A stretch of 64,000 nucleotides of DNA from a virus (Duplodnaviria > Caudoviricetes): positions 1-64,000 of the IMG/VR virus record IMGVR_UViG_3300020577_004796, one strand, 5' to 3'. Below are positions 18,189 through 49,155 of this stretch, one piece after another; position 1 is the stretch's first letter, and each line of letters starts with the position of its first letter. The notes under the pieces are model-generated. The model did not search any database. It saw only the letters and a program-made list of their open reading frames with translations, and was not told the origin of the DNA. Both the position numbers and the translations under genes were made by a program.

Positions 18189-18775
18189 TCAATTCTTGTT
18201 TCTAATAAAACACCACCTAATTGCATTTTATTAAACTTAGTAACATCTATAGAATTTGATACTAAAGCTGCACAAGCTCCTTTTGTGTTCACATTCAATC
18301 TATACTTAAATAAGTGCCAAATTTTATCTAATTTATAATCACCCGCTCCTACTGCTTCAGTATCGTGTATTACTATTAAAGGAACTTTGTTACTTATTTT
18401 TTCAATCAATTCCCAGCGTTCTTCTCCAGGTGAATGGTCAACCAGACAAATATCAATATTATCTATTGATTCAATAATTGAATATGGAGTTCTATCACAT
18501 ATTAATTTGTGATTATTTGATTCCATGAATTTATATTTATCCAGCCACTCTTGACTATAATCATAAGAAATAAGATTTCTGTTATTATTTACTAAACAGT
18601 GAAGATGTGATGTACTCCCGTCACCGCAACCCAATTCTACTATAGCGCCTTCTTTTAAAATATTACAAGCTAGATATAATAAAGATCTATGATTGCACCA
18701 GTTTAAAATGCCATTTAAAAAACCACAATTGTCTTCTTTTTCTATTTGGTTTAACCAATCTTGAGTAAATTCCAT
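18176..18775 (-). CDS. Class I SAM-dependent methyltransferase-like protein
   Basis: IVELGCGDGST motif I; CLVDH and IVIHDTE strands. Confidence 0.65.
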   Translation of the reverse strand: MEFTQDWLNQIEKEDNCGFLNGILNWCNHRSLLYLACNILKEGAIVELGCGDGSTSHLHCLVNNNRNLISYDYSQEWLDKYKFMESNNHKLICDRTPYSIIESIDNIDICLVDHSPGEERWELIEKISNKVPLIVIHDTEAVGAGDYKLDKIWHLFKYRLNVNTKGACAALVSNSIDVTKFNKMQLGGVLLETRIEWIN

Positions 18776-30780: not shown

Positions 30781-30790
30781 TTTATTTTTG

Positions 30791-30861
30791 CACGGATAGA
30801 ATGAATCGAACACTCGTTAAAGGTTTTGGAGGCCCTTGTACTGCCACTGTACGATATCCGT
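30791..30861 (-). tRNA. trnW: tRNA-Trp (CCA)
   Basis: ACGGATA/TATCCGT acceptor, GTAC D-stem, loop CT-CCA-AA, GAGTG-TTCGATT-CATTC T arm; no encoded CCA end. Confidence 0.9.
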
Positions 30862-30969
30862 AAATAAGATAAGAAAACTAGCGTCTGGTTCAAACAGAGC
30901 TCACGCCGATATTCACTAGACTAATCTAGCTAGCCCCTGCTATAGAAGGTCCTTCTAGCTTTCTTATTG

Positions 30970-31043
30970 TTGCGGCGGCTGGCTACGATCCAGCGATCTT
31001 GTGGTTATGAGCCACACGAGATAGTCCCCTTCTCCACGCCACA
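30970..31043 (-). tRNA. trnM: tRNA with CAT anticodon (Met/fMet-like)
   Basis: TGTGGCG/CGCCGCA acceptor, GAGA/TCTC D-stem, TGTGG-CTCATAA-CCACA, GCTGG/CCAGC T-stem with atypical loop ATCGTAG. Confidence 0.8.
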
Positions 31044-33777: not shown

Positions 33778-33809
33778 TTTGGAATTGTTAATAATAAGTT
33801 GTACCTTTG
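33778..33809 (+). promoter_or_regulatory. Bacteroidota primary-sigma promoter for the GIY-YIG gene
   Basis: TTTG-N20-TACCTTTG ending 5 nt before ATG 33814. Confidence 0.75.
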
Positions 33810-33813
33810 TGGT

Positions 33814-34356
33814 ATGATTTACATATATACAATTACAAGTCCTACGGGAAGGGTTTATGTGGGACAGACCATTAATCCTACAAAGAGAAAACACCTCTAT
33901 AAGTCATTACATTGTAAGACACAATATCTCATTTATAATTCCATATTGAAATATGGCTGGGATGCACATGTGTTTACTGTTATAGCAGAATTACCTATCG
34001 AATATGGAGATGATGCAGAAATAGCATATATTTCCTATTATAGGGCCTATCATACTGATGGTGGACTTAATCTTACTACAGGAGGATTACGCCCTAAAAT
34101 GACTGTAGAAACAAAACAGAAACTATCTGCTGCTATTATGGGAGCAAAGAATGCCAGAGCTAAGAAACTATATCAATATACATTAGATAAACAACTCATT
34201 AAAATATGGGATTGTATGAAATGTATTGAGAGAGAACTTGGTTATGGTACATCTTGGTTATCTATAGCAGCTAAAAATAATAAACAAGCTTACGGCTATC
34301 TATGGTCATATGAACCTCTGCAAGGGCTAGATGAATGGGTAATCTGTTCATGGTAA
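33814..34356 (+). CDS. GIY-YIG homing endonuclease (NUMOD3/NUMOD1)
   Basis: IYIYTITSPTGRVYVGQT, LNLTTGG, TVETKQKLS, LYQYTLD..LIKIW. Confidence 0.85.
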   Translation: MIYIYTITSPTGRVYVGQTINPTKRKHLYKSLHCKTQYLIYNSILKYGWDAHVFTVIAELPIEYGDDAEIAYISYYRAYHTDGGLNLTTGGLRPKMTVETKQKLSAAIMGAKNARAKKLYQYTLDKQLIKIWDCMKCIERELGYGTSWLSIAAKNNKQAYGYLWSYEPLQGLDEWVICSW

Positions 34357-34581
34357 CTCTCAGAGTGTAAAAGCCAGTTACAATAGAGTGCAGAGGGAAA
34401 ATACCTATATATCCTATCTTTTTGTTATAACTTATTGATAATCAATGAATGTATGTCAAGTTTACTTTACATTTTGTAAAGTTTAGTGTACATTTGTAAT
34501 AGACCCTGATCACAATCTTGGTTTATTACCTATTTTCTCTTATCTCTCATTTATTACTAACTATTAATAACTTATAGCATT

Positions 34582-34845
34582 ATGTCACAAGAATATACAA
34601 ATGGATGGATTGGTCTCACTAAATCCAAGTGGACTGAAATGAACAATACTATCTCTAATCAATTACCAGTATTCTGTCGTGTATCTTCAGGATTAGGTTT
34701 ATGTGCTGAAGAAACATTAAGAGCTAATGGTATTCATCCTGACTTTGTTCCTATAGTATTTAAAAGTAATTACTCTACTATAGGTAAACTACTACTAGAA
34801 ATAGAACAAGTTGTTCCTATTACTTATGTAGATATTCCTGATTAA
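34582..34845 (+). CDS. Hypothetical protein
   Basis: 87 aa ORF. Confidence 0.55.
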   Translation: MSQEYTNGWIGLTKSKWTEMNNTISNQLPVFCRVSSGLGLCAEETLRANGIHPDFVPIVFKSNYSTIGKLLLEIEQVVPITYVDIPD

Positions 34846-35501
34846 ATGCATTTATCAATATTTTCATATTAGTTAAAACTCTCATGTTTACCAAGTAAAC
34901 AAAATGCGTATAAACCAGAGTAATGTGATCTTTATGATCTTAAGCCTCTACGGACTATTTGTTTACTATTATTCTATTCTTCTTAAGAATAGTTTGTTCT
35001 TAGGTATAGAATAGATTTCTCATGATTCGATCTCTTATTCTTATGTTTAACTGAAAAATGCAAGGCAGTTCCACACATATATGTATTTCTAGAATACGTA
35101 TAAAACTCTAATAATTAGGTTCTTTAAATCCAGTAAGCGATTAACGCTGGAAGATTTCATCCCTAACATTGTAAAGAGTAAATATATAGATAAGTTAGGC
35201 ATAACTGATTCTATTAACATTGTGTATTATAACTATTTCTTCTTGAGATAGATAGTAGCAGTGGCTGTGATGTGGTAAGAACTAATAAGTATTATATAAA
35301 TAACAGTTATATAATATGAAAATGTTCTGATGCAGATAATGCATAACAAATCAAGATTATCCTAAGGTTCTCATATCTAGACTGGTGTTACCTGGAAGAT
35401 ATGTAATAGCACATGGTTTTGAGAGTCCATGTGCTATTATTTTTACTTATTTTCACACTAATACATAAATGCAAATCATTCACTCATAAAGCAATTTTAT
35501 T

Positions 35502-36098
35502 ATGATACGTTACAAACTCACAGATCAGAACATGAAAACTTATAATGGTTTTCAATGGAAAATAGGTAAGAAAATGATTACTTCTGGTTCAGGAGAATTA
35601 TGTAGTTCAGGATGGCTTCATTGTTATTCCGATCCTAATTTAGCTATTCTTTTCAATCCTATTCATGCAAATATTCAAAATCCAAGACTCTTTAAAGTTG
35701 AATGTGCGGGTTTACATAAAACAGATAAAGGATTAAAGGAAGGATTTACAGAAATGACTATAATAGAAGAAATAACAATTCCAAGTATTTCTTCTATTCA
35801 AAAAATAGAATTTTCTATATATTGTTCTTTACAAGTATATAAAGATTCTAACTATGTTAATTGGGCTAATAATTGGCTAAATAATATAGATCGTTCAGAG
35901 TCAGCAGCACGGACAGCAGCATGGACAGCAGCACGGACAGCAGAGTCAGCAGCATGGACAGCAGCACAGGCAGCACAGGCAGCAGAGTCAGCAGCATGGA
36001 CAGCAGAGTCAGCAGCACAGGCAGCAGAGTCAGCAGCACGGACAGCAGCAATTGATTTTATCTCTATTATTAATAAAGTATTAAATCGTACAAAATGA
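35502..36098 (+). CDS. Phage protein with DUF7666-like N-terminus and Ala/Trp-rich tandem repeats
   Basis: YK......F.W..G...LC..GW.H...P domain followed by SAARTAAWTAA-type repeats. Confidence 0.6.
   Translation: MIRYKLTDQNMKTYNGFQWKIGKKMITSGSGELCSSGWLHCYSDPNLAILFNPIHANIQNPRLFKVECAGLHKTDKGLKEGFTEMTIIEEITIPSISSIQKIEFSIYCSLQVYKDSNYVNWANNWLNNIDRSESAARTAAWTAARTAESAAWTAAQAAQAAESAAWTAESAAQAAESAARTAAIDFISIINKVLNRTK
35896..36050 (+). repeat. Imperfect in-frame CAGCAG-based tandem repeat
   Basis: Units such as CAGAGTCAGCAGCA(T/C)GGACAGCAG repeated several times; GC-rich against AT-rich flanks. Confidence 0.9.
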
Positions 36099-36387
36099 AA
36101 AAGCTCATTAAACTAATGCATTCTCTTACTTGTAAAGTATGTGGATGGCATATAAGACATTGTAAATGTCATTAATTTAATTCTTCAGATAGAATACAAT
36201 GAAAATGTTGCGTTATATGATGCAAATTATTAAATACTTGCATTATTCTATCTAAAGAATTAAATGCATACCAAACCTCAGAGGAGTTATATCCCTCACT
36301 GATTAGACAATAACTTAACACGGTAACAATTCTGTAATGTTTAAACTGATTCAAAAGGATTAAAATGTTTCAGTACATGGTTTTACA

Positions 36388-36503
36388 GGACGAGGAGGAT
36401 GTTGGCTTGAAAGCAGCAATCATTTAAAGAGTGGGATGGCAAATATGTTTTTTCTATTTTTATAGAGATAAATACCCTTTGGCGTAACAGCACACTCCAA
36501 GTT
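36388..36503 (+). ncRNA. 23S rRNA GTPase-associated-centre (H42-H44)-like structured RNA, copy 1
   Basis: GGAG-GATGTTGGCTTGAAAGCAGCAATCATTTAAAGAG-[about 48-nt hairpin insert]-TGGCGTAACAGCACA-CTCC. Confidence 0.8.
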
Positions 36504-36537
36504 AAGTTTAATCAGTCTTTCTCCCAAAGAGTGAGGT

Positions 36538-36673
36538 GTTGTAATGAGATAGGCAGGTCCCCAAAGACGGATAATAATGTAAATTAAAGAAACCGTGTTT
36601 ACTACTAGCTAAGTGATTAGAAACGTAGACTAGCAATAGGTCAGCGGTAAAGAGCATGTATCTCTATTACAAC
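36538..36673 (+). ncRNA. Unclassified multibranch structured RNA candidate
   Basis: Closing stem GTTGTAATGAGATA / TATCTCTATTACAAC; internal CTAA-GTGA-TTAG and CTA-GCAA-TAG GNRA hairpins. Confidence 0.5.
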
Positions 36674-36748
36674 AAGGTATATTGGGTGCTGATAGGAAAG
36701 ACTATCCCTCTTCGGAGGTTATTCAATTCACTCATTAAAACAATACTA

Positions 36749-37087
36749 ATGAAAAAGACATACATATTCAGATATGATACAAAGGATGGTAAATTCTTAG
36801 GCTATCATTATGATAGTTTCTGTACTACAGGTAACAGTGTTATAGAAGCTAAAAGATATCCAATGACTACAGAAGTACTTCCAGAACAAATGAAGACCAT
36901 TCGGGAGAATCTGGAATCATTATGTAAGAGATATACTAATAACATGTTCCATGGGCATCCTGTAGCTGATGTCATACTCTCTGAAGAAGAACTGACAGAG
37001 TCCGTAGAACAACAGTACCCACATACCATGAAATGGGCCAGAATAGAACTGGTAGATGGAGAAATACAAACTGTATCAACTCCTTAA
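36749..37087 (+). CDS. Hypothetical protein
   Basis: Likely start ATG 36749 (MKKTYIFRY) after a CACTCA box. Confidence 0.6.
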   Translation: MKKTYIFRYDTKDGKFLGYHYDSFCTTGNSVIEAKRYPMTTEVLPEQMKTIRENLESLCKRYTNNMFHGHPVADVILSEEELTESVEQQYPHTMKWARIELVDGEIQTVSTP

Positions 37088-37114
37088 TTCACTCACTTTA
37101 AAAACACATCAGGT

Positions 37115-37438
37115 ATGAACGCTAAACAAGAATTCCTAGGACATATAGGAACCCGTATAGTAAAATGTGCTATAATACGAATAGGAGATATATATATGGA
37201 TGAAGATGTAATAACTAACCTATTACCTGTAGGAGCATCTAGTACACAGTCAGAAACATTTCTGCAGAGTATAGATAGAAATTACAATAATGGGTATGGT
37301 ACTCAAGAACTATTTGGTACTATATGGTATACTGATGGTACCTGGTCTAGCAGAGGTGAATATGATGGCAGTGAATGGTGGGAACATCATAAATGCCCGG
37401 ATATACCAAAAGAACTACAACAGAAGCAATATCTATAG
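37115..37438 (+). CDS. Conserved small phage protein
   Basis: 107 aa, Y..GYG.QEL.GTIW..DGTW..R.EYDGSEWW motif. Confidence 0.7.
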   Translation: MNAKQEFLGHIGTRIVKCAIIRIGDIYMDEDVITNLLPVGASSTQSETFLQSIDRNYNNGYGTQELFGTIWYTDGTWSSRGEYDGSEWWEHHKCPDIPKELQQKQYL

Positions 37439-37440
37439 GT

Positions 37441-37635
37441 GGTGTGGTAGAGAATGTTGGCTTGAAAGTAGCCATCATCTAAGGAGTAGGTGAGAACCCT
37501 AAGCACAGTGGCAATCTCTGGTAATGGGAGATATGAAGTGGGCATGGGATAAATTCAAAAGTTGGGTGGATTAAACGCCACTACCTGGTAGTCATTATAC
37601 CAGCCTTTTGGTGTAACAACACACTCTGTCACATC
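37441..37635 (+). ncRNA. 23S rRNA GTPase-associated-centre (H42-H44)-like structured RNA, copy 2
   Basis: 12-bp closing helix GGTGTGGTAGAG/CTCTGTCACATC around AATGTTGGCTTGAAAGTAGCCATCATCTAAGGAG-[about 120-nt insert]-TGGTGTAACAACACA. Confidence 0.8.
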
Positions 37636-37670
37636 ATCTATAGATACTTATAGTAAAACAACAATATCCC

Positions 37671-37803
37671 CCTCTGTAGGGGTAGTGGTAGAAAATGATA
37701 TATAGCAGTTAAGTCAAAGATCCGGAAAATGGCCCATGGAGGTACTAGACACACCTGGTCATCTGCAGTATGGATATATCAGCTACCATTACCTCTACAG
37801 AGG
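37671..37803 (+). ncRNA. Long hairpin / multibranch element
   Basis: 21-bp closing helix CCTCTGTAGGGGTAGTGGTAG / CTACCATTACCTCTACAGAGG (with G-U pairs), plus inner TGATATAT/ATATATCA. Confidence 0.6.
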
Positions 37804-38926
37804 ATTAAGTTAACAACAGTACAGATATTAATACCTTTGTATAACAATCACTCACAAATAAAACAACTAACAAATACCTGTAGAGTATGGTGTAGAACTT
37901 AGAAAGAACTAATAAGTGTGGGTAAAATGCTGTGGCTAATAACCATATACATCATCTCTACAGGTAATATAAAACATTAAAATGGGAAAGAATACTGCAA
38001 GGAATAATCCAGGTAAAGTTAATGGTGATATTGGTCAGGGAGTAAAACGTAAGGACAACCCAGAACTATGGCATAAACTACACGGACATGCTGTAAACTA
38101 TAAAGGTAAAAGACACAATAATGCATTAGGCTCACTATACGGGAAACCTGATAGAGAAGAATATTATAAATACGAATCTGAATAAACACTCTGAAGTAAG
38201 CCTTGTTGTAATAGGTATAAGTATTAGGGTCTCTGATGTAATATTCAGGCTTGTCTAACCTTTTAACAACTATTACAACAGGCTTATGGAAGAGTATTAA
38301 ACAATGACTATTTAAAAAATAACTTATGAGATATAGATTTGATACTTGTTATAATAAACAAAAAACCAGCACATGGCTGCATTTTTATATCTTACCTTCT
38401 ATAGGATTTGAAATGCAAAAACCTAAATTAGCAGCGAGATATTGGGAATTTCATTTTGGCTGGTTATTTTGGAATCTTATTATATCGTTTTAAACAATAT
38501 TAATATGGCTACTAAATTTATAACTCTAAATAGAGCAAAAGACCTTGAAGTAAGTATAGGTTGGCTTTCTAATTATCAAAATAAATCTGGAGAAAAACAT
38601 GTAATTGGTAATTCTTTAGAGGATATAGATGCAGAAGCTACTGAAAAACTTAAACAACTTTCAAAGTTAAATAAAGAACGTGAAAGTTTATTAACTTGGT
38701 TCAAACAATATTGATAACACATAAAAGCAAACAACATGAAAAAGTCAACAATAATACTTGGTATAATATCTCTGATACTGTTCATCTGTAGTGCCATCTA
38801 TGACAGTCCCATACTGTTCATGATAGGGTTCGCTACCTGTATAACAGCATGTCTGATACAGGGATGGGATACATGGTCAGCAGGAGATGATGAAGAATAA
38901 GTTCACTCACTAAAAATAAAAACATT

Positions 38927-39235
38927 ATGACACCAATACAACAGAAAATAGAAGAATACCGGGAGTGGCTACAGGAAGAAGTTAGAGTACGGAAAGGAGC
39001 TATTAATATGGGAGCAGCAATGATGGGAATGGGATATGAAGATGCCCTGCAGAAACTAGACACTATGTTCCCCGTGGAACATACATCAGAAGAACCTACA
39101 ATGTCAGACCTCATCATGGATACTGTAGATATACCGGTAGATGATGGACCTATAGAAGAAGAATGGGCTCGTAAAGACATAAAACAGGAACTGGGTATAG
39201 CAGATGAAACTGATAATATCTATCCAAAACACTAA
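38927..39235 (+). CDS. Hypothetical protein
   Basis: 102 aa after a CACTCA box. Confidence 0.6.
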   Translation: MTPIQQKIEEYREWLQEEVRVRKGAINMGAAMMGMGYEDALQKLDTMFPVEHTSEEPTMSDLIMDTVDIPVDDGPIEEEWARKDIKQELGIADETDNIYPKH

Positions 39236-39250
39236 ATCAAAACAACATAT

Positions 39251-40645
39251 ATGGAACAGAACAAAGCAGGACCTAATGGTCTCCCAACAGAGTATCAGAT
39301 ATACATCAGTGATGATAACTCAGAAGAAGGAAAAGAACTAATAAATAATAAAGCTGCTACTAAAGGTCATAGTCATGGAAGACATCGAACATATGGATCT
39401 TCTGGATACTATCATATCAAGGAGAATATGTGGTTCTACTATGGTACCAAGAGAACTGATATAGCAGAGATATCCTATGAAGACTGGAAGAAAGCTCTCA
39501 CTGAACCATCTACAGGTTATAAGGTAGGAGACTGGATCACTATACTGAATGGTGGCTGTAGGGTAGGCCCAGGAATGCAAGGGCATAAACTAGTAGGTAA
39601 TAGTTATCAGATATCATCAGTAGACCGGCAAACTCCTACAGAGTGGAAATACACATTAGAGGGAAATCCTGTCCAAACATCAGCAATAGTATGGGATAAA
39701 GCTACTATGGGTAGTCAACCCTACATCAGGCCGGCAGCACCTGAAGAAATAGCTAAGGCTACCGGTATACCTCTACCAACAGAGAGTAAAGAATGGGTAC
39801 CAAAAGTAGGTGAGTGGGTAGTGACAACCTCTACAGAATACAACTATACTGAGAATGGAGAAACAGGTAAAGTAGGTACAGTATACCAGGTACAGGAGGT
39901 GCTAAAAGATAAAGCTGGAGACTGGTACAGAAGAACTAAAGGGGCTACTGATGGTGCTAAAGTAATATCTCTCAGACCAGCCACTTCAGAAGAAATCAGA
40001 AAAGCTCAATCTAAGAATGGTAAGGAATGGGTATGTACTAGTGAAGATGGGGTGGAGTTGTATGATGGGAATATGGGATATTGGACCGAGTTAAAAGAAG
40101 GTACCTGGAAATGGTGTACTACCTGCCATATAAGTAAAGCACATATAGCAAAAGGTTGTAGTCTAACTACAGGAAACTTCAAAGTATTCTCCACAGAACA
40201 AGCAGCTAAAGAATGGATAAGCCGTCAAAGTACATCAGGGGAATGTAGGGAACCATGGTCACCAATACCGGTAACTGATGGACAAGTAAGAAACACTGCC
40301 AAAATAGGACAGAATGCAACATGTAGAGCAGGAAACTATAAAGGGCAATGGGGTGAAATAGTGAAAATGGATAAAGGGTTCTGGTATGACCTAAAAATGA
40401 AAGATGAAGAAGTAGTAACATGTTATCCATCAGAAATAGAAGAAATAAGAGTAAACAAATCAATAATCAATTCACAAACAAAAACCAAAACAAACAGTTA
40501 TGGGAACATCACGGAGAGCGACGCAGACAGCGTCAGAGCAATTAAATTATCGTCAATTACGCGAACAGTCGGACGATCAACTGAAGGACCAGCAGTTGCA
40601 ATACGACGTAAGAAGCAACCTAAACGGGTTGTCAGAGTATATTAA
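39251..40645 (+). CDS. Multi-module early protein with repeated SH3/KOW-like units
   Basis: Repeated KVG(D/E)W(I/V) modules and RPA(A/T).EEI.KA linkers. Confidence 0.65.
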   Translation: MEQNKAGPNGLPTEYQIYISDDNSEEGKELINNKAATKGHSHGRHRTYGSSGYYHIKENMWFYYGTKRTDIAEISYEDWKKALTEPSTGYKVGDWITILNGGCRVGPGMQGHKLVGNSYQISSVDRQTPTEWKYTLEGNPVQTSAIVWDKATMGSQPYIRPAAPEEIAKATGIPLPTESKEWVPKVGEWVVTTSTEYNYTENGETGKVGTVYQVQEVLKDKAGDWYRRTKGATDGAKVISLRPATSEEIRKAQSKNGKEWVCTSEDGVELYDGNMGYWTELKEGTWKWCTTCHISKAHIAKGCSLTTGNFKVFSTEQAAKEWISRQSTSGECREPWSPIPVTDGQVRNTAKIGQNATCRAGNYKGQWGEIVKMDKGFWYDLKMKDEEVVTCYPSEIEEIRVNKSIINSQTKTKTNSYGNITESDADSVRAIKLSSITRTVGRSTEGPAVAIRRKKQPKRVVRVY

Positions 40646-40934: not shown

Positions 40935-41310
40935 GGGCCCGAAAGGCAATCGACTTGCAATATTAAGAGCAACAGACATGCAGGGAAGGTGTGTTGACCA
41001 CTAATACACGCACAACAACAAATGCTAAAGTTAGCAAAAGCGCTATGACCTTTGGTCGTACTCGCACGATTGATGTTACTTCTTTCGCCCGCCCACGTGG
41101 CCTGGCGTTTGCAGCCTAACACCACTTCTGGTGAGAAGTAAACACACCAAAAACTGTTTTGAAATCTCAGTAAAGGATACCTTGACGTTGGAAGTAGATG
41201 TAAAGTATGCATAACTTCATAGTTTGATAGAACAATAAACTGATCTAAAGCATGTGAAAAGACTGTATTATTAAATTGTAAACACGTTCGTTCGAATCGA
41301 ACCGGGTCCA
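40935..41310 (+). ncRNA. ssrA: tmRNA (one-piece)
   Basis: 5' GGGCCCGAAAGGCAATCGAC; 3' GTTCG-TTCGAAT-CGAAC-CGGGTCC-A; G3-U70 alanine determinant; tag ORF 41024-41119 ends LAFAA*. Confidence 0.93.
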
Positions 41311-41376
41311 CGAATCCACAATAAATTTGGCGAGTCCACTTTTATTAAGAAATTCAGCCAAGTAAGAATGGCGCCA

Positions 41377-47931: not shown

Positions 47932-49155
47932 AAACCGGAACTATAAGTTTTCCTGACAGGAAATGAAAATGTGCTTTCAGTTTAGTGTCAGCAGACTGGG
48001 AGGAGTGATAGATTAAGGTTGAGGGGAGAGACCCGAGATTCTTGATTTCACGATGCATCTAGCGCATTGAAATAAGGCTAACGAATCCAAGCCTTAAAGT
48101 GGATTTAGCTGTGGTATAGGTAATCTTTTTGTAGTTGTGGTTCAATTCCCACTATAATTAGATTGCCTTTACTACAGTTTATTTAAAAAATTATGAAAAA
48201 CGAAGAAAGATTTTTTACAGTGTATCTTTCTAATGATACACAAAGATCAATAAAAGCCAAAAGTCCTGATATTGCTTATATAAGAGTTCTCAGTTTTATC
48301 TTAACCAGAGAGATGGATAATGAAATTCTCTATATTGTAGATGAAAAAGATAAAAAGATTTACTACGATTTAGAGTGGGCTGTTATTATGAACGACGGAG
48401 ATAGCTTAGAAAGAATAAGTGGTAACCCACCAACATACACTGAAAAAGAAGTACTTGAAGCAATTTTAAGTTATTGTAGATATATAGGCAACGTACCTGC
48501 TTCTGCAGAACATTATTTTAACACACAAGTAAAAAAGAAATAAAAATGGGCGATAAGAAAAATTCTCCGTTACGCAACCAAAGAAGAAAGAATGTGGTAG
48601 AAAGACTATCACAACAATTAAAAGATAATGTAAAGTTGGTAAAGCAAGCTGGTACCGACTCCCTTATCCTGGAAGAGCCCTTATCAGAAAATGATAAAAA
48701 AAGAATTCTAACAGAATTATCTACCTTAGAAAGTAGAATAACATATTAAGATCTCATAAAAGGAGAAGTAGCCAGTTATCGTAAGACTGGTGTCTCTGGA
48801 GGGGTTGTGCGATGGTAACGGGTTGGCCGTAAGTAAGAAGGTGAAACAGACGACTTTGTCTCATCGAGGGGACATATACAGCACTTTTAGGGTACGAAGC
48901 GTTATACATCACTGAAAATTGGTCCATACAATTTATAGGAGGAGGGAACTACTTTCTAATCAGTAGTGGTTGAAGTCCACTGTACCCGCTAATAAAAATA
49001 CTGCAATATTGCAATCGTAGCTTAAATTTTCCAAGAGCATGGATACGAGCATAAGAGGACCCACTAACACATAGTCTCGCGACTATAAAGATTATATAGA
49101 AACCAACTATTACAAATCTTAGTAAGAATTTGTAGGGGAATAGTTGGTTTCTTCT

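Follow-up and report, generated by a model that had tools for sequence, protein, structure and literature searches.

The closest known counterpart of the element described here is a part of the ribosome itself, the GTPase-associated centre (GAC) of 23S rRNA, a 58-nt domain which binds uL11 and thiostrepton and is embedded in an RNA of 2.9 kb. The element, copy 1, lies in a 64,000-nt stretch of DNA (the window) that represents positions 1 to 64,000 of the IMG/VR virus record IMGVR_UViG_3300020577_004796 (Caudoviricetes), and is a free-standing phage gene of 115 nt. It is nearly identical to the GAC in sequence and has the same helices and the same nucleotides that mark its tertiary structure. 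The phage RNA family to which copy 1 belongs differs from the GAC by an added helix with a UUUG linker, by A at position 1101, by a relaxed 1067-1070 loop and by a closing stem of arbitrary sequence. Copy 1 is almost certainly a real, intact and minimal member of this structured family which, within the limits of Rfam 15 and of the open-licence literature, is an undescribed class of phage RNA.

Other known RNAs resemble the family in part. The leaders of ribosomal protein (r-protein) mRNAs, such as the rplJL or L10 leader (Rfam L10_leader), are also RNAs which imitate an r-protein binding site off the ribosome, and the same region of rRNA is concerned. These leaders however act in cis within r-protein mRNAs, are cellular and resemble rRNA only loosely, whereas members of the phage family follow it almost letter for letter and are found amid tRNA genes and small phage open reading frames (ORFs). 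With the RNAs of phage tRNA clusters (tRNAs, tmRNA and the rnaC and rnaD, or 'species 1 and 2', RNAs of T4) the family shares its niche and, presumably, its release through co-transcription and processing with tRNAs, but it imitates rRNA and not tRNA, and the copies in the window do not lie in a tRNA array. The T4 RNAs were considered as relatives and rejected, the T4 tRNA region being without the GAC motif and giving no match to our covariance model, R1, better than E 0.4. 6S RNA titrates RNA polymerase, and CsrB and RsmZ titrate CsrA, by imitating the natural nucleic-acid ligand of the protein. The mode of titration proposed below for the phage RNA would be similar, while its target, its origin in rRNA and its encoding by phages would set it apart.

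Comparison of copy 1 with authentic 23S rRNA sequences confirmed the resemblance. A first-pass annotation had counted 31 matches to E. coli in 34 positions for the 5' half and 13 in 15 for the 3' half, and the real E. coli 23S gene (L310) gives the same counts. Taken over longer segments, identity to E. coli is 33 of 40 positions (1051-1090; E. coli 23S numbering is used throughout) and 13 of 18 (1091-1108), and the 5' half matches the 23S genes of 5426 out of 5426 E. coli genomes, with 91.7% identity along 36 nt. One 20-mer of the core is present at both 36398 and 37453 of the window, when 0.00 occurrences are expected from shuffled sequence. Every signature nucleotide of GAC tertiary structure is present in copy 1, namely U1060, A1077, A1088, G1071, the C1072/C1092-G1099 triple and the 1082-1086 pair. 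Copy 2 carries alternative tertiary covariants, U1072 with U1092-A1099 and C1082-G1086; the 1092-1099 pair is therefore C-G in one copy and U-A in the other, in step with C or U at 1072.

The two halves of the core are interrupted in both copies at one and the same junction, as the earlier annotation had noted, by a 45-nt hairpin plus UUUG in copy 1 and by an insert of unrelated sequence in copy 2. Bacterial 23S rRNA usually reads GAGUGCGUAA at this junction, as in the Bacteroidota 23S, and this sets the insertion point between U1090 and G1091; the E. coli sequence is GAAAGCGUAA. The hairpin of copy 1 has a GGG/CCC base and an inner UUUCUAU/AUAGAGA stem, and is among the shortest inserts in the family. 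In lower H44, G1087 pairs with C1102 (36493) and U1090 with A1101 (36492), and in upper H44 A1095 (36486) lies in the loop GUAACA. The closing helix is predicted to form between 36389-36397 and 36495-36503 as four base pairs (GGAG/CUCC), a 2x2 internal loop and a further three base pairs. Besides this short closing stem and its near-minimal insert, copy 1 is unusual in having a G1062.A1076 mismatch, the A being at 36418. Copy 2 is built of an 18-bp closing stem that includes G-U pairs, the core, a 119-nt insert (37488-37606) and the UUUG linker (37607-37610), and its fold has a z-score of -3.9. A GAAA form of the 1067 loop, put forward as a feature common to the two, holds in that both have G1067-A1068 (36409 and 36410 in copy 1), but it is not diagnostic, being found in 8 of 112 members. 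At 8 of 55 core positions the two copies have different residues, a divergence equal to the family median, and they are not the product of a recent duplication. The coordinates of these parts are collected in Table 1.

Table 1. Parts of copy 1 and extent of copy 2, with positions counted along the window
Feature	Position	Strand	Remark
Copy 1, whole GAC-like RNA	36389-36503	+	minimal family member; model R1 match 36389-36507
Copy 1 closing helix, 5' strand (H42-top equivalent, 1047-1055)	36389-36397	+	predicted fold
Copy 1 H43 equivalent (A1057-U1081) including 1067 loop	36399-36423	+	E. coli 23S numbering
Copy 1 1082-1086 turn (U1082...A1086 tertiary pair)	36424-36428	+	family covariation
Copy 1 lower H44 5' strand, G1087 A1088 G1089 U1090	36429-36432	+	E. 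coli 23S numbering
Copy 1 family-specific inserted helix, 45-nt A/U-rich hairpin	36433-36477	+	basal pairs covary in family
Copy 1 UUUG linker, insert to G1091	36478-36481	+	UUU invariant, G nearly so in 45-sequence alignment
Copy 1 upper H44 and 1095 loop (G1091-C1102), then A1103, C1104	36482-36493	+	13/15 match to E. coli
Copy 2, whole element	37435-37641	+	R1 82.3 bits, E 1.4e-27

The family extends well beyond the window. Viral contigs were scanned with two patterns, one for each half of the core, and counts of elements are lower bounds. At least 107 distinct elements were found in viral contigs, with the halves 78-415 nt apart and in no case contiguous as they are in rRNA. A scan of genome contigs returned 74 matches, of which about 46 were rejected as chance matches within protein genes; about 30 further elements come from genome contigs, mostly contigs of metagenome-assembled genomes rich in tRNA genes, and three are from gut Clostridia isolates. 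Carriers include cultured jumbo phages and crAss-like phages, and their hosts belong to many phyla. The element is present in unannotated gaps of the genomes of Cronobacter GAP32, Xanthomonas XacN1, XaC1 and XbC2, Serratia BF, the Erwinia pEa_SNUABM phages, Pseudomonas pf16 and Milchi, Aeromonas 4_4572 and Paenibacillus Pd_22F. In GAP32 its position is about 289,513-289,764, and in Aeromonas 4_4572 it lies upstream of tRNA-Met, at about 75,079-75,370. The covariance model R1, which was built from 20 other phage sequences with both window copies left out, matched copy 1 over its full length (model positions 1-175) with 82.4 bits and E 1.2e-27, and found only copies 1 and 2 in the window, copy 2 being likewise matched from end to end. 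By the same model GAP32 scores 91.4, XacN1 88.4 and Aeromonas 4_4572 86.3 bits, and the real 23S GAC of E. coli and of two Bacteroidota 43.7-45.9 bits. Two separate full copies are present in only one of 23 near-complete carrier genomes, and the pair in the window is thus unusual; in the one two-copy carrier (G339, the record of L165) they lie at 18369-18529 and 192055-192230.

No family of Rfam 15 covers the element in the window, whether at the gathering score or at E <= 5, nor in 16 family loci, and megablast of positions 34000-40000 of the window against GenBank phages gave no match. A full-text search of open-licence PMC papers and bioRxiv did not find a description of the family. Alignment of both copies with phage homologs, the check that the first-pass annotation had proposed, gave a common core with an insert at the identical junction in all regular members. 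That annotation also suggested an RNA family with a conserved core and a swappable module; the conserved core and a variable insert at a fixed site are borne out, while 'swappable' is descriptive, there being no evidence of exchange.

The architecture of the family RNA is under selection. All regular members have an extra helix at the junction of U1090 with G1091, and A in place of U at position 1101; a UUUG linker follows the helix. Covariation statistics were obtained from a MAFFT alignment of 45 sequences (A1), in which U1090-A1101 is present in 45 of 45 and G1087-C1102 is a GC pair in 45 of 45; position 1101 in rRNA is U. Together the inserted helix and the U1090-A1101 pair turn H44 into a three-way junction. 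Across these 45 sequences 92.9% of the cells expected to pair do so, against 69.7% in shuffles, and the covariation score is 0.592 compared with 0.144 for shuffled alignments (0 of 500 as high) and 0.11-0.19 when the partners are slid. Compensatory changes are found in 19 of 26 pairs, including all four basal pairs of the insert helix (columns 45-48 with 293-296). The closing helix is of arbitrary sequence and yet is 79-100% paired, with compensatory changes in nine of its nine pairs.

Residue counts were made on 85 regular members numbered by E. coli 23S positions. The 1058-1080 pair is U-A in 39 members, G-C in 23 and A-U in 18, and the 1057-1081 pair is A-U in 77 and C-G in seven. The tertiary pair 1082-1086 is U-A in 45, C-G in 25 and A-U in 13, so that it is complementary in 98%. 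C1072 accompanies C1092-G1099 in 82 members, and U1072 accompanies U-A in copy 2 and in L004. A1095 is present in 84 of 85, and A1076, seen in copy 1, in 8 of 85. In the 1067 loop, position 1067 is A in 67 members, G in 14, C in three and U in one, while 1068 is A in 24 of 85 and 1070 is G in 12 of 85. A further set of elements (L098, L128, L157, L158, L175, L180, L181, L194, L198, L221, L226 and L067) shows an apparent second insertion or replacement within 1077-1087, after GCAGCCA.

Minimum free energy (MFE) folding was tried as a test of the GAC fold and abandoned, as it recovered the architecture in no member, and did not fully recover it in the rRNA 58-mer. The GAC architecture lies 9-24 kcal/mol above the nearest-neighbour MFE in 45 of 45 members, and 5 kcal/mol above it in the E. 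coli 58-mer. This energy gap is consistent with a fold that needs stabilisation by tertiary contacts, ions or protein. The dependence of the rRNA GAC domain on all three is established.

The inserts vary far more than the core. Their length ranges from 44 to about 370 nt while the junction is invariant, and most of them are unrelated to each other in sequence. A hairpin of the form CACC-CCNNAANNGG-UAAGG is nevertheless shared by 19 of 85 inserts (L176, L201, L131 and L087 are examples), 15 nt before the 3' end of the insert (14 in one), and its third pair covaries. The inserts show no similarity to the rrn operon of E. coli, nor does the CACCCC..GGUAAGG hairpin resemble rRNA. Among the long inserts, those of L003, L148 and L214, and more loosely that of L184, contain a AGUACGAGAGGA-type hairpin resembling the sarcin-ricin loop (SRL), with its own flanking stem; it occupies a homologous position in all four and is followed by AAUUAAG. 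This hairpin is thus found in three to four of the 85 regular members, where shuffles give an average of 0.87 matches. The copies in the window have neither the SRL-like nor the CACC-CCNNAANNGG-UAAGG motif.

In its genomic setting the element behaves as another stable-RNA gene of phage tRNA arrays. tRNA genes lie within 4 kb of it in 70 of 105 loci, always on the strand of the element, and within 500 nt in 55, where they often abut the closing stem on both sides; the other 35 loci are free of tRNA genes within 4 kb. No conserved neighbouring protein was found in the 105 loci, any one family being present in at most five. It is the abutting tRNAs on the same strand, together with the want of a conserved neighbour protein, that point to the behaviour of a stable-RNA gene. 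The context of the window copies is atypical of the family, as they lie among small + strand ORFs of no assigned function; the ORFs flanking them are hypothetical (DUF7666, phrog_3972).

Several other features of the window may be mentioned. An ORF with GIY-YIG and NUMOD3 motifs (33799-34356), about 2 kb upstream, matches homing-endonuclease PHROGs (E 2.5e-17) and shares one block of the early region with the RNA elements. Directly after copy 2, at 37671-37803, is a structured element with a 21-bp closing stem and a z-score of -5.6 (0 of 200 shuffles as stable), into which the beginning of a 57-aa ORF extends and for which Rfam gives no match. Copy 2 and this element suggest that the source phage carries tandem stem-enclosed RNA cassettes. 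ARAGORN calls a tmRNA at 40935-41311, with the tag AQQQMLKLAKAL; as there is no match to the tmRNA model of Rfam even at E <= 5, the status of the call is uncertain. At 48108-48178 is a long, well-formed hairpin with a sub-threshold match to the mir-196 model (34.7 bits, E 1.6e-4), which is certainly no miRNA. A scan for promoters and terminators was uninformative, with promoter matches at chance level. None of the sequencing runs that contain the element is listed as an RNA run, and the metagenome runs labelled 'RNA-Seq' are probably of DNA.

Functional mimicry, in the sense of binding uL11, is something we infer from how the rRNA surface has been kept. The C-terminal domain of L11 contacts rRNA at 1058-1060, 1062-1065, 1075-1083 and 1088 (PMC1802607). 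Within the family each of these positions shows either little or no variation or else covariation, and the insertion at 1090/1091 falls outside that list. Copy 1 keeps the L11-surface nucleotides by sequence except for C1076A, and its fold is supported by covariation alone. Constraint on the core is weakest at the loop positions whose counterparts in the ribosome are turned towards the factors, thiostrepton and the N-terminal domain of L11. Copies with G1067, the two in the window included, are predicted not to bind thiostrepton. The possibility that position 1067 is a signature of the host was rejected, as an isolate with A1067 in its 23S rRNA has G1067 in the copy of its own prophage, and one contig has both forms. 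The 23S rRNA of Bacteroidota often has G1067 (CUUGGAAGC) and not the usual A (L308, L309 and about 65 other listed genes). No L11 homologue was found in the source record or in 42 carrier phage records, of which 23 are at least 90% complete, so that any uL11 partner would be that of the host.

The family RNA copies the GAC of 23S rRNA (the top of H42, H43 and H44; 1051-1108) with its tertiary-contact nucleotides and adds a single helix. For its function we put forward the following scheme as a proposal. The RNA would be set free from its usual tRNA array when the neighbouring tRNAs are processed, as a stable RNA folded, we suppose, like the rRNA domain. [quoted passage not shown] Blunted uL11-dependent activation of RelA, or an altered uL11 content of ribosomes, are candidate effects. 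The odds lean modestly towards uL11 binding as the core of the function of the family RNA.

A number of points weigh against this reading. A sponge would face competition for uL11 from ribosomes numbering in the tens of thousands. Binding of uL11 leaves the universal extra helix unexplained, and the subtype with an SRL-like hairpin points toward translation factors and not uL11 alone. Because members were gathered by core patterns, the core looks somewhat more conserved than it is. For copy 1 the gap between the GAC-model fold and the MFE is 18 kcal/mol, one of the larger values in the family, the MFE itself is no better than that of shuffles (z -1.5), and the closing stem is weak (4+3 bp), to which the G1062.A1076 mismatch is added. 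Both window copies are outside a tRNA array, and copy 1 has no tRNA gene within 4 kb, the nearest being at 30790-31043 on the - strand. A more elaborate form of the proposal is that the RNA is an rRNA-derived 'mini stalk base', carried by large phages of many hosts, which would assemble with host uL11, and in long-insert members also present an SRL copy, and so imitate the factor-docking site off the ribosome. It would capture or divert RelA (and with it the stringent response), a translational GTPase or a ribosome-targeting defence enzyme, with two specialised versions in the source phage. This we regard as speculative and rather unlikely.

Alternative functions for the RNA were ranked, in descending confidence, as a decoy for a defence system or toxin directed at the GAC, a mimic of the factor site, a scaffold for cargo, a leader acting in cis and a functionless relic. 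It is possible, though improbable, that the RNA shields ribosomes by acting as a decoy for GAC-recognising defence or for the toxin of a competitor (an enzyme modifying or cleaving rRNA, or a thiopeptide-type ligand). Its location in tRNA arrays would suit such a role, and phage tRNA arrays are discussed as counter-defence against tRNA-targeting nucleases (PMC12803027). The almost exact copying of the rRNA surface, A1095 and the tertiary core included, and the spread of the family across phages of many host phyla also fit a decoy. The Photorhabdus Rhs toxin Tre23 reportedly ADP-ribosylates 23S rRNA in H44. We know of no anti-phage system which targets H43/H44, however, and were the exposed loop at 1067-1070 the target, its relaxation would not be expected; nor was a linked defence or anti-defence gene found in the 105 loci. 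That same loop bears on the idea, which we consider doubtful, that away from the ribosome the RNA, with or without uL11, engages RelA or translational GTPases (EF-G, EF-Tu complexes, IF2, RF3), for it is in the factor-contacting residues 1067-1070 that the core is least conserved. In favour of factor-site mimicry are the SRL-like hairpins of L003, L148, L214 and (loosely) L184, the SRL being the other rRNA component of the factor site, and isolated SRL and GAC oligoribonucleotides are said to bind EF-G, a result attributed to Munishkin and Wool in 1997; but these hairpins are present in only three to four of the 85 regular members, shuffled sequence by itself gives 0.87 matches on average, and both copies in the window lack them. 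Variation of the inserts raises another possibility, that function resides in the insert, and that the GAC fold, which uL11 might protect, does no more than stabilise it as a scaffold. The range of insert lengths, the mostly unrelated sequences, the unrelated inserts at one site in the window copies, and neighbouring elements of the source phage in which long closing stems surround unrelated interiors could all be explained in this way. We nonetheless find it unlikely, as inserts of 44-48 nt (a plain A/U hairpin in copy 1) are too small for much cargo, selection conserves the core and not the insert, and the hairpin common to 19 of 85 inserts, whose spacing from the 3' end is constant, suggests a structural role.

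The remaining two explanations are much less probable. Control of a downstream phage ORF through binding of uL11 or uL10 to a cis-acting leader is brought to mind by the position of both copies upstream of + strand ORFs (36656/36749-37087 and 37729-37902), but it is at least 150 nt to the next start, no conserved downstream gene was found, the downstream ORFs have no r-protein domains and there is no match to an Rfam leader (gathering score, E <= 5). The idea fails because the downstream neighbour in the family is mostly a tRNA and not an ORF, and we hold it to be very unlikely. Least credible of all, and close to negligible, is the view that copy 1 is a captured rRNA fragment, pseudogene or assembly chimera without function, for which its strong similarity to 23S rRNA might be cited. 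The window belongs to a 73-kb IMG/VR record that encodes a major head protein (distantly crAss-like), portal and terminase, and that record is without an rRNA gene, RF02541 (LSU_rRNA_bacteria) having no match in it at E <= 0.001. Copy 1 is flanked by phage DNA, its H44 is interrupted and its position 1101 is A and not U; the U1101A change and the insert are absent from the rRNAs compared (E. coli and Bacteroidota 23S). In run X1 one contig covers 36300-37750 with 0 differences, and in X2, from another study, an independent 258-nt contig covers 36301-36558, that is copy 1 and both flanks, also with 0 differences. Independent assembly across the element and its flanks excludes the chimera with host rRNA which the first-pass annotation had named as the finding that would overturn it. 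A relic without function is in turn refuted by covariation and distribution, since every helix has compensatory changes and the element is present in more than 100 diverse phages and in several cultured phage genomes.

Genes for tRNAs, for tmRNA and for a few ribosomal proteins are already known from phages. A free-standing gene for a copy of a functional rRNA domain would add a new class to the translation-related RNAs of viruses. The domain that is imitated is among the best-studied RNA-protein modules (uL11, thiostrepton, EF-G, RelA), and the hypotheses raised here can therefore be tested directly, with reagents that already exist and in cultured phage-host pairs. If uL11 binding by the family RNA is true, it would provide phages with a new route by which to manipulate or protect the factor-binding site of the host ribosome.
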